From: a virus
DNA: 20,309 nucleotides
IMG/VR virus record: IMGVR_UViG_3300010379_001190
Strand: one strand, 5' to 3'
The position numbers and the translations under genes are program-made. The notes beneath the pieces were generated by a model, which was given only the letters and a program-made list of their open reading frames with translations, made no database searches and was not told the origin of the DNA. Shown here piece by piece: positions 15,050 through 17,689 of this stretch. Within the stretch, counting starts at the first letter, position 1. Each line of letters starts with the position of its first letter.

Positions 15050-17689
15050 TTACGCTCGAGGTTGAGCGGTTTTCGCAGCGGTTCCATTCGAGGGCTCGGC
15101 CAAATGCTTGCCGAGGTTTGTGCCCTTCAGGAGTTCTCCAAGAACTTCCATGATTCCGGTTTGCTTGATCATGGCGAGAGGTGCCATGGCCGTCGACACC
15201 TTCTCGATGAGTTCACGCTCACCGAAGGCATTGAGAGCAGCGACGAGATCCGGTTGAATGGCTGCAGCCTTGTCAACCACTGCTTTGACTTCAGCTTCGA
15301 GCCAGGCCTTCTTCTGAGCCAATTTCTCGGCTTCGAGAGCGATCTCTTGATCGGTCTGAGCCTTCATTGACGCGAGAGTAATCTTCTCTACGTCGCCTTT
15401 GGACTGCTCTGCCAAGAGAGCCTGCTTGGCCTTCTCCTCGGCGGTCTTGGCGTTCGCGGCCAAGGTGGCAAGGTCGAATTCGAGCCGGGCCGTCAGTTCC
15501 TCCTGCTTAAGTTGGAACTGTTTGCGAGCTGTCTCATTGGTCGCTTGGGCTGTTGCTTGCTTGATGCCCTCGGACTCTTTGGTGAATTCGAGTGCCCGCC
15601 TCGATGAAGCCAGAAGAAGGGCATGCTTGATGACTTCCTTCTGCGAGTTGGAAAGGTCCTGTGCGATCTCTTTGTTGTCGAGCAGCACATCGAGCACTTC
15701 CACATCGTAGACATGCATTCCGTTCTCTTCGAACGTTGTGCCGATCCGTCCAACCTTGCCAGTGCTTGGATCGACGGTCTTGCCGAGCACCGTGTCGCGC
15801 ACAAAGTCTTCGGCTGTTGCATAGAACTGCTCAACACCGATTTTCTTGGTGGCCGATCGGAGCTTGGACCGAAGATGGTCAGTCAGGAACTTCGTGTAGT
15901 TCTCAACTGAGAACCACTTCTCGGGATCTCCTCCCTTGAAGTCCATACGATACGAGACTTTGACCTTCAACTTGCAGAAGTCCGCAGTCTCGACCTCGAC
16001 AATATCCGATACCTTGTTGCCCTTCGTCAGCAGGAACGCTGTGCGAAGAAGGTGGTCAGTTGTCTTGGGTTTGCCCCGCGAGAGCGCCAGAATTTGCGGT
16101 TGCTCATCGTATTCGAGCAGAGCTGTGCAAGGACCTTGGACCACCCGACGTTTGCCAGATTTACTGACAAGCAGCATGGCATATCCCGGCCAGATGTCGG
16201 AGGATACGGCACCGTCGAACTTTGTCGGCAACGTGATGGTTCGCGGCTCTGAGAATTGCGTTTTGCGTACGAATGAGTCACCCGAGAATCCACGAGCCGC
16301 CCCGCCACCGATTCCACGAGCTTGAGCGGTATCCGAAACTGCCAGGTTCGCATAGACGCCCGGAGTCCCCGCGAAATTGGCAGCATAACCGCCTTGGAGG
16401 CCGACGGACCCCGTTAGACCCTGAGGACCGGTAGGACCAGGAACCGCCAACAACATAGCTGCAGCAGCTTCCGCGACTGCTGCCGACGATGACATGTAAG
16501 TGGCGAGATCAACGCCAGCAACATTCGCATTGTGCTCCAAAGCGGCTTGGTTGCCGGGATAGAGCATGCTGCACGTCTTGTAGTCGAGCAGACGGCGAAC
16601 GATGACTTGCGAGCGCGGATCCGGCAAGAAGATCTGCGGACCTTTGACCAACGGAACGTCGCCCTTATTGCGATCAAGCACATAGCGCGCTTCGCCCGCT
16701 GGAATGGCGACGCCATAGTGAATTTCGTTGTTGTCGTACTTGACGATCGCGTGCTCTTCCCGTGGGAAGTAGATCATCTGCTCTTTGCCGGTAATGAAGA
16801 GTTCTTGGCCCTGTGTGTACTGCTGGCCGTTCTCTTCGTAATCGGCTATGACTTTGATGTAGATGCCCGAGTTCTCGTTGAGCTCGATCGCGCGAAACTT
16901 GCGAGTCTTGGTCTTCTTGCCGTCCTTCTCGATTTCCCTATCATGGAAGATCTCAGTCGGCTCTGGAAAGACCACTGCAGGGCCCCGTTCGTACCGCTTG
17001 TTTCCGTTTTCATCACGAAGCATGCAGTACTCGAGCGTCTCGAGCGTCACAGCGCCGCGAATGAGGTTGCCTTCGGCATCGGCAACAACTTCAATTCCAG
17101 TCGGCGGAATGTAGAACGCCACATCTGTTCCCTTGATGACGAGCAATTTGCCCATCGTCAGCTCGGGAATCGCTGAATTGGGAGTATCACTTGAACCATC
17201 AGTCTGCGGCTTGATGATGGCGCTCTTCCAATTCTTGCGCGCAGCGTCGTCATCGTAGACGCGCACGAGAAGATACTGGTTGCTGCGCAGATTGTGGCCT
17301 TTAATGACTTTTGCCATCTGGCCGGGGAAGAGCGGAAAGGAAACGGGGCCGGGAATGTTGACCTTGCGACCAACCAGCAGATCCACCAGAGAGGCTTTGC
17401 CTTGCCCGTTTGGATGCTTCTGCTCGCTCTTGTCGTTGAATGCCGGATTCTTCAGAACGATGTAGTACCCCTCGGGAGCCGTTTGGTGAACCTGAACAGC
17501 CTTGTCGACATTGGCATCGACGAATTTCTTGGACTTCTCGTCGAAGATGACTGGACGGTCACCGTCTCCGAGAGTGGTCTTGCACGGACCGACGTAGACG
17601 TTAACGTCACCCTTCGTGCAATCTCGCACGAGCATCCACTCGTTGGGTGCGAGGACAATGTCTCTATTCCGACGATCTTCTTCCGGCAT
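15050..17689 (-). CDS. Major vault protein (MVP) homolog: MVP-type N-terminal repeats, shoulder (SPFH-like) domain, long cap-helix coiled coil; internal Gly/Ala-rich insert
   Basis: Full-length, colinear by-eye resemblance to human MVP. N-terminal IVLAPNEWMLVRD…VYVGPCKTTL compares with IIRIPPYHYIHVLD…VEVGPKTYI. ENSGIYIKV compares with ENEGIYVQDV, and FYIPPTGIEVV with GTYIPRKEVEVVE. In the shoulder, ETADFCKLKVKVSYRMDF and WFSVENYTKFLTDHLRSKLRSATKKIGVEQFYATAEDFVRDTVLG compare with ETADHARLQLQLAYNWHF and [45 protein letters not shown]. A ~150-aa Ala/Glu/Lys-rich predicted coiled coil follows. 879 aa vs 893 aa for human MVP. AAGGAGG sits 5 nt upstream of the ATG. Confidence 0.8.
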   Translation of the reverse strand: MPEEDRRNRDIVLAPNEWMLVRDCTKGDVNVYVGPCKTTLGDGDRPVIFDEKSKKFVDANVDKAVQVHQTAPEGYYIVLKNPAFNDKSEQKHPNGQGKASLVDLLVGRKVNIPGPVSFPLFPGQMAKVIKGHNLRSNQYLLVRVYDDDAARKNWKSAIIKPQTDGSSDTPNSAIPELTMGKLLVIKGTDVAFYIPPTGIEVVADAEGNLIRGAVTLETLEYCMLRDENGNKRYERGPAVVFPEPTEIFHDREIEKDGKKTKTRKFRAIELNENSGIYIKVIADYEENGQQYTQGQELFITGKEQMIYFPREEHAIVKYDNNEIHYGVAIPAGEARYVLDRNKGDVPLVKGPQIFLPDPRSQVIVRRLLDYKTCSMLYPGNQAALEHNANVAGVDLATYMSSSAAVAEAAAAMLLAVPGPTGPQGLTGSVGLQGGYAANFAGTPGVYANLAVSDTAQARGIGGGAARGFSGDSFVRKTQFSEPRTITLPTKFDGAVSSDIWPGYAMLLVSKSGKRRVVQGPCTALLEYDEQPQILALSRGKPKTTDHLLRTAFLLTKGNKVSDIVEVETADFCKLKVKVSYRMDFKGGDPEKWFSVENYTKFLTDHLRSKLRSATKKIGVEQFYATAEDFVRDTVLGKTVDPSTGKVGRIGTTFEENGMHVYDVEVLDVLLDNKEIAQDLSNSQKEVIKHALLLASSRRALEFTKESEGIKQATAQATNETARKQFQLKQEELTARLEFDLATLAANAKTAEEKAKQALLAEQSKGDVEKITLASMKAQTDQEIALEAEKLAQKKAWLEAEVKAVVDKAAAIQPDLVAALNAFGERELIEKVSTAMAPLAMIKQTGIMEVLGELLKGTNLGKHLAEPSNGTAAKTAQPRA

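Follow-up and report, generated by a model that had tools for sequence, protein, structure and literature searches.

The window analyzed here is a 20,309-nt stretch of viral DNA (IMG/VR record IMGVR_UViG_3300010379_001190), and in it a minus-strand open reading frame (ORF, 15050-17689) encodes an 879-residue protein homologous to major vault protein (MVP), hereafter the query. Our subject is a Gly/Ala-rich, weakly collagen-like stretch within this protein. A preliminary description made from the sequence had placed it at residues 385-475, inside the last MVP repeat, and had taken it for an insert that has no counterpart in canonical MVP and that would project from the vault wall and could act as a tether or as a cargo- or host-interaction loop. 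The translation agrees with the sequence quoted there, residues 385-475 corresponding to nucleotides 16265-16537, but the alignments and models described below put the stretch between repeats 8 and 9, at a site where other MVPs also carry a loop.

Pfam finds MVP_shoulder (PF11978) at residues 558-668, scoring 86.6 bits where the cutoff is 25, and Vault_3 at residues 510-553 (E 3.4e-7; score 30.7 bits, cutoff 28.8). Among PDB entries, the MVPs of rat, human and rabbit are matched with E ~1e-14 by the single sequence and with 1e-30 by a family profile. We also modeled the 879-residue monomer with AlphaFold2, using 76 homologues as input; the mean predicted local distance difference test score (pLDDT) was 70. 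A Foldseek search with this model returned vault structures of full length (E 1e-29) and the crystal structures of R1-R7 (E 2e-12), as well as secondary, weaker matches to the SPFH proteins flotillin, prohibitin, stomatin and HflK/C. Pfam and Foldseek together show an N-terminal array of beta-rich MVP repeats leading into repeat 9 (Vault_3), and the long C-terminal cap helix is modeled at residues 673-808, its sequence aligning to the rat cap helix up to residues 782-786. By sequence and predicted fold, then, the ORF is a member of the MVP family, with putative assembly into vault particles. Neither PHROGs nor NCBIfam contained a family matching it or its small neighbor proteins. The features of the gene are collected in Table 1.

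Table 1. The MVP gene and the segments of its product around the repeat-8/repeat-9 connector.
Feature	Residues	Nucleotides	Strand	Evidence
MVP homologue, 879 aa		15050..17689	-	Pfam, PDB sequence and profile matches, Foldseek
Repeat-8-like beta core	325-368	16586..16717	-	Profile alignment, AlphaFold2
Helical module opening the connector: conserved LLDYKTCSMLYPGNQAALEHNA, then Ala-rich helix	369-414	16448..16585	-	AlphaFold2, conservation
Hypervariable low-complexity core	415-455	16325..16447	-	AlphaFold2, identity, indels
G-X-Y micro-repeat GPTGPQGLTGSVGLQG, five triplets plus closing Gly	418-433	16391..16438	-	Direct reading
Closing conserved motif ARGIGGGAARGFSGDSFVRKTQFSEPR	456-484	16238..16324	-	Conservation
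Last MVP repeat (repeat-9-like)	485-556	16022..16237	-	Pfam Vault_3 (510-553), hhalign, phmmer, AlphaFold2
Shoulder (SPFH-like) domain	558-668	15686..16018	-	Pfam MVP_shoulder (E 1.7e-24), Foldseek SPFH matches

Where the stretch lies relative to the repeats can be read from both of its flanks. On the upstream side, the family profile places query residues ~325-368 on rat 379-419, the beta core of repeat 8, which ends at about residue 368 (rat L419). On the downstream side, phmmer places query 510 on rat 474, Vault_3 aligns query 510-553 at profile positions 18-60, and hhalign, run against 50-odd eukaryotic fragments, pairs query 482-500 (PRTITLPTKFDGAVSSDIW) with human 454-472 (KTRVVSYRVPHNAAVQVYD). 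(In global mode hhalign put the N-terminus of the human fragment on the low-complexity region with zero confidence, and the repeat-9 part alone was used; the eukaryotic set, which came from a search with a human MVP fragment, consists of fragmentary proteins and served for the loop, not for a full-length alignment.) In human MVP itself, Pfam ends Vault_4 (repeat 8) at residue 437, places Vault_3 (repeat 9) at 457-518 and starts the shoulder at 519. Both flanks of the stretch are also well modeled: AlphaFold2 gives strands at 327-364 (pLDDT 85-91) for the repeat-8 core, which has no indels relative to the 17 closest homologues, and strands at 496-554 (pLDDT ~90) for the repeat-9-like segment. 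Since the repeat-8 core ends near residue 368 and Vault_3 matches residues 510-553, the stretch is the connector between the two repeats, running from the repeat-8 core and its short helix to the first strand of repeat 9, and does not lie inside the last repeat. At the same site, rat residues 429-448 and human residues 429-449 form a repeat-8 loop that neither crystallography nor cryo-EM has ever resolved (PMC3595041, PMC13347060). The canonical protein therefore does have a counterpart, contrary to the preliminary description.

To describe the connector we drew on four sets of relatives: 120 close homologues (the best matches), 80 of 270 matching IMG/VR contigs, 80 of 417 matching GTDB species genomes, and 146 representatives of a family that falls into 1218 clusters at 50% identity. 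In the query the connector spans residues 369-482 (114 aa) and has three parts. It opens with helices at 370-376, 381-391 and 395-400, all modeled with pLDDT 86-90, followed by an Ala-rich helix at 402-414 that is modeled less well (~44-56). P378, N380 and N387 do not vary, and L376, A383 and G392 hardly do; the module is kept across the 146 family representatives to about residue 391 and has zero indels among close relatives. (We considered a transmembrane reading of the Ala-rich helix and rejected it on account of the helix's shortness, its central Glu and its polar character in most of the family.) At the other end, the closing motif (ARG..ARGFSGDSFVRKTQFSEPR) has invariant G470 and R475 and nearly invariant R458, P482 and R483, and its GDxFxR...PR pattern is found family-wide, bacterial chromosomes included. 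Between these two conserved segments lies the core at 415-455. Averaged over the 17 closest homologues, identity is 0.83 in the repeat-8 core, 0.73 in the helices, 0.44 in residues 415-455, 0.70 in the closing motif and 0.84 in repeat 9, and all indels relative to these homologues fall in 415-455, with 7-31 gap columns per pair.

A disorder prediction had been suggested as a check on the stretch. Taking pLDDT as a proxy, residues 415-484 are predicted to be disordered: all of them score below 50 and have no secondary structure by DSSP. The earlier claim that the stretch is unstructured agrees with this prediction for the core and as far as about residue 484, but not for residues 385-400, which belong to the conserved helices. 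Both ends of 385-475 are conserved: the first ~16 residues lie in confidently modeled helices, and the last ~20 (456-475) belong to the closing motif. Because the core is predicted to be disordered, a flexible loop (415-455, extending to ~484) standing out from the wall is plausible, as had been proposed; a docking-model statement (PMC3595041) would have the repeat-8 loop face the lumen.

These data also bear on whether the region might be a degenerate extra MVP repeat, an outcome that the preliminary description had itself raised as a possible refutation. Its length would allow this, as ~90-114 residues would accommodate one or two repeats of ~55 residues. MVP repeats are beta-rich, however, and AlphaFold2 gives helices at 370-414 followed by coil, with zero beta strands; no Vault-family Pfam model matches residues 314-513 even at E<=1; and connector length varies continuously across the family, from ~37 to 145 aa. 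We give this explanation next to no credence.

The composition that first drew attention to the stretch is not in doubt. Gly and Ala make up 39.6% of residues 385-475 as compared with 15.6% over the remaining residues (binomial p = 3e-8), no other 91-residue window of the 879 residues is as rich in them, and charged residues fall to 8.8% from 28% elsewhere. Within the core, GPTGPQGLTGSVGLQG has six Gly at period 3, an arrangement that only 7 of 100,000 shuffles preserving the loop's composition attained. Given the enrichment and the shuffling result, both the composition and the "G-x-y-like" character noted earlier are real rather than products of chance. We rejected a tandem-repeat or slippage origin for the run: TRF found no DNA tandem repeat at a score of at least 30 beneath it, and the only repeat nearby is a 12-nt direct repeat on the minus strand (16286-16297 and 16310-16321, 24 nt apart; GAATCCACGAGC and GATTCCACGAGC), which encodes ARGI and ARGF in the closing motif.

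A run of this kind could be a functional collagen-like element, in which the G-X-Y tracts of three neighboring subunits, or of a partner protein, form a short triple helix that tethers subunits or cargo at the repeat-8/repeat-9 position. Besides its departure from chance, this idea can draw on the close homologues, 24 of 120 of which have significant period-3 runs of 5-11 Gly, scattered patchily over at least five clusters; a GATGPQGPxG core is common among these runs and recurs in at least five clusters at 54-83% overall identity. In a ring assembly, where local concentration is high, association could also be favored. The run itself fits the idea poorly. The query has only five triplets, with Pro in two of the five X positions and in none of the Y positions, and collagen peptides that are unhydroxylated, five triplets long and Pro-poor fall far short of what a stable triple helix takes, so that a tract this short would be unstable. 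Pfam Collagen (PF01391) has no match to the query even at E<=1, no neighboring trimerization module is evident, and AlphaFold2 gives the tract no structure. Nor is the register conserved among orthologues: the run is missing from sister sequences (P0004, P0009 and P0013, for example), and runs were found in one of the 80 viral loci and 5 of the 146 family representatives, while none of the 80 bacterial loci had a run of at least five Gly at period 3. We regard a working collagen-like element as very unlikely.

What is conserved is the presence of a loop. One was found in every homologue of all four sets, including many IMG/VR contigs of 100-500 kb and complete or near-complete chromosomes of Nannocystis as well as Thermoflexibacter ruber. 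The preliminary description had recognized that comparable inserts, if common in bacterial MVPs, would count against a novel insertion, and every bacterial and phage homologue examined has a loop of comparable or greater length. Measured between the anchors N387 and R475, the span is 87 aa in the query, 59-102 (median 74) in close homologues, 37-86 (median 55) in viral loci, 39-82 (median 49) in bacterial genomes and 15-118 (median 61) in the family representatives; connectors in the eukaryotic fragments are 9-54 aa long (median 34), some of them T/S/Q-rich and of low complexity. Composition is equally variable. Homologues that do not belong to the query's clade have a polar, charged loop (median G+A of 20-24%, charged residues 24-32%), and among the 146 representatives, with medians of 22% G+A and 24% charged residues, four are as Gly/Ala-rich as the query. 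HMMER alignments to the representatives typically stop at query ~390-395 and restart at ~454-470. In four Nannocystis loci (L108, L113, L115 and L121) the same position holds an uninterrupted series of 7-11 prolines, another lineage-specific low-complexity filling. At 50% identity the family as a whole divides into at least 1218 clusters, 609 of them at E<=1e-30, and the GTDB species that carry it belong to Myxococcota, Cytophagales, Riflebacteria, Sericytochromatia, Vulcanimicrobiota and other groups.

Such variability could also be the mark of an arms race, the loop being a sequence-specific interaction site (for cargo, a host factor or defense evasion) under diversifying selection. In keeping with this, length and composition vary extremely right beside tightly conserved flanks, and loops of the query's clade exceed those of cellular homologues in length (median 74 vs 49 aa). 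The gene also sits in a phage replication module (15050-20272 and 8054-14122): it is flanked by genes for a DnaB-like helicase and a primase zinc-ribbon protein, its other neighbors encode DnaJ, a family-A DNA polymerase, a dCTP deaminase and a homing endonuclease, and the order DnaB-MVP-primase-DnaJ-PolA-DCD (DCD, dCTP deaminase) is kept in relatives, among them one at 75% identity (locus L161), on contigs of up to 439 kb. On the other side, the same loop is present in the chromosomal MVPs of free-living bacteria and in those of eukaryotes, to which a phage-host arms race does not apply; its composition is of low complexity and not motif-like; and its changes are dominated by indels. No partner gene is co-conserved either, as tblastn at 1e-5 found no neighbor conserved beside MVP across 80 other viral MVP loci, synteny being limited to the close clade. 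We consider an interaction loop of this kind unlikely. More generally, a tether, cargo-binding or host-binding role, as far as sequence comparison can speak to it, appears weakened, because sequence, composition, length and the G-X-Y run are all unconserved.

Our preferred explanation, to which we assign a probability of about 0.75, is that the stretch is the phage/bacterial version of the hypervariable, disordered loop carried by all MVPs at the end of repeat 8, immediately ahead of repeat 9 and the shoulder, and that it serves as a passive flexible spacer. As the 114-residue connector occupies a site that was already variable, it represents the expansion of a loop and not a new insertion, and the presence of a loop at the same site in bacterial, phage and animal MVPs makes it an ordinary feature of the family. 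We infer the spacer role as follows. From the helical module (369-400, possibly to 414) the connector runs through the core predicted to be disordered (~415-455) to the GDxFxR...PR motif, after which the strand that opens the last repeat begins. The core would most likely be passive, letting the conserved flanks settle in the assembled wall and tolerating insertions, with constraint on flexibility and minimum length alone. Its composition could then drift freely, toward Gly/Ala in the query, Pro in Nannocystis, and Ser/Thr/Gln or charged residues elsewhere, and the weakly collagen-like character of the query would be one lineage-specific outcome of such drift. The helical module and the GDxFxR...PR motif would be the constrained parts and probably make important contacts in the assembled wall. 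The loop is probably neither a sequence-specific binding site nor a collagen triple helix.

Several points weigh against a purely passive spacer. The G-X-Y run is non-random by the shuffling test, and the recurrence of GATGPQGPxG-like cores in several clusters is not something that pure drift predicts, so some property of the motif may be under selection, polyproline-II stiffness or an interaction for instance. The closing motif is conserved yet unmodeled in the AlphaFold2 monomer, and the loop may therefore make contacts with other subunits or with a partner. Finally, bacterial and phage MVPs are known from in silico work alone. One might go further and suppose that the recurring GATGPQGPxG-type tract found in some huge-phage MVPs has been selected as a module, making short collagen-like or polyproline-II contacts between loops on neighboring subunits or with a partner that is itself collagen-like. 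If so, it would provide a lineage-specific layer of cross-bracing or cargo tethering near the shoulder of a phage-built, vault-like shell, but we hold this to be highly improbable.

A second segment of the protein, residues ~213-268 (16886-17053, minus strand), has many invariant positions (L219, L224, G229, R232, G236, V239, F241, P242, P244, T245, E246 and F248) despite a pLDDT below 50. Being conserved yet unmodeled in the monomer, it may be an oligomer interface. Two ORFs listed mechanically on the opposite strand (15936-16325 and 16532-17176, plus strand) lie within the well-supported MVP gene, and we rejected them as genes.

Elsewhere in the window, the family-A polymerase ORF (8848-11763) carries a Pro/Ala/Glu-rich, low-complexity extension of ~150 residues in its C-terminal part (~9100-9570, minus strand), followed by a short C-terminal domain; the Pfam polymerase match stops at residue 699. 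A Cys-rich ORF of 235 residues (7450-8157, minus strand), with many CxxC pairs and no Pfam match, overlaps by ~100 nt the 5' end annotated for the dCTP deaminase ORF (8054-8728, minus strand), and the deaminase probably starts at a later Met. Two genes lie on the opposite strand within the replication module: a full-length DnaJ (11807-12907, plus strand), with J domain, zinc-finger region and C-terminal domain, which the close relative shares, and a GIY-YIG-type homing endonuclease (6239-6928, plus strand). No RNA elements or tRNAs were found on either strand. In tblastn searches of GenBank phages, matches came solely from uncultured phages of 462-735 kb, and for that reason the window is most likely, judging by these similarities, a fragment of a huge-phage genome.

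The value of these results is mainly corrective, in that the Gly/Ala-rich stretch should not be taken for a unique functional insertion. The loop marks a permissive, insertion-tolerant site common to eukaryotic, bacterial and phage MVPs, which could help in the engineering of vault-like particles and, because HMMER alignments routinely break there, in building alignments and profiles of the family. The wider context may merit more attention than the loop itself: a large MVP family is common to huge phages and to gliding or predatory bacteria, and here its member lies within a replication module.

Three known systems invite comparison. The collagen-like proteins of phages and bacteria (PF01391) share with the query a strict Gly at every third residue, here over 16 residues, and GPx triplets. 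They differ in having long uninterrupted arrays of tens of triplets, as opposed to five, and the query's run is unconserved among orthologues and sits in a loop of a non-fibrous shell protein that has no evident trimerization domain.

Bacterial MVP homologues (from Myxococcota, Cytophagales and others) and phage MVPs have both been described in silico (bioRxiv 10.1101/872010 and 10.1101/2023.11.10.566534, respectively); a term search of these two papers returned no description of the loop. The full-length homologues that we found in the GTDB genomes and IMG/VR contigs, at 45-52% identity, have the same three-part connector. The cellular proteins differ in their shorter loop cores (median 49 aa vs 87 in the query), which are charged and polar, or poly-Pro in Nannocystis, and which, in all 80 loci, lack the Gly run.

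The disordered repeat-8 loop of eukaryotic MVP, by contrast, is already well known, and it resembles the query's loop in three ways: it occupies the same site, between the short helix that follows the repeat-8 beta core and the strand with which repeat 9 opens; it is disordered, being unresolved in the eukaryotic structures (PMC3595041, PMC13347060) and scoring below pLDDT 50 in the query; and its length and composition differ between species. The query's connector is about three times as long (114 aa vs 36 aa in human), begins with the family-specific helical module LYPGNxxALxHNA and ends with GDxFxR...PR. Its core, rich in Gly/Ala and almost free of charged residues, also differs from the polar, charged loop of vertebrates.

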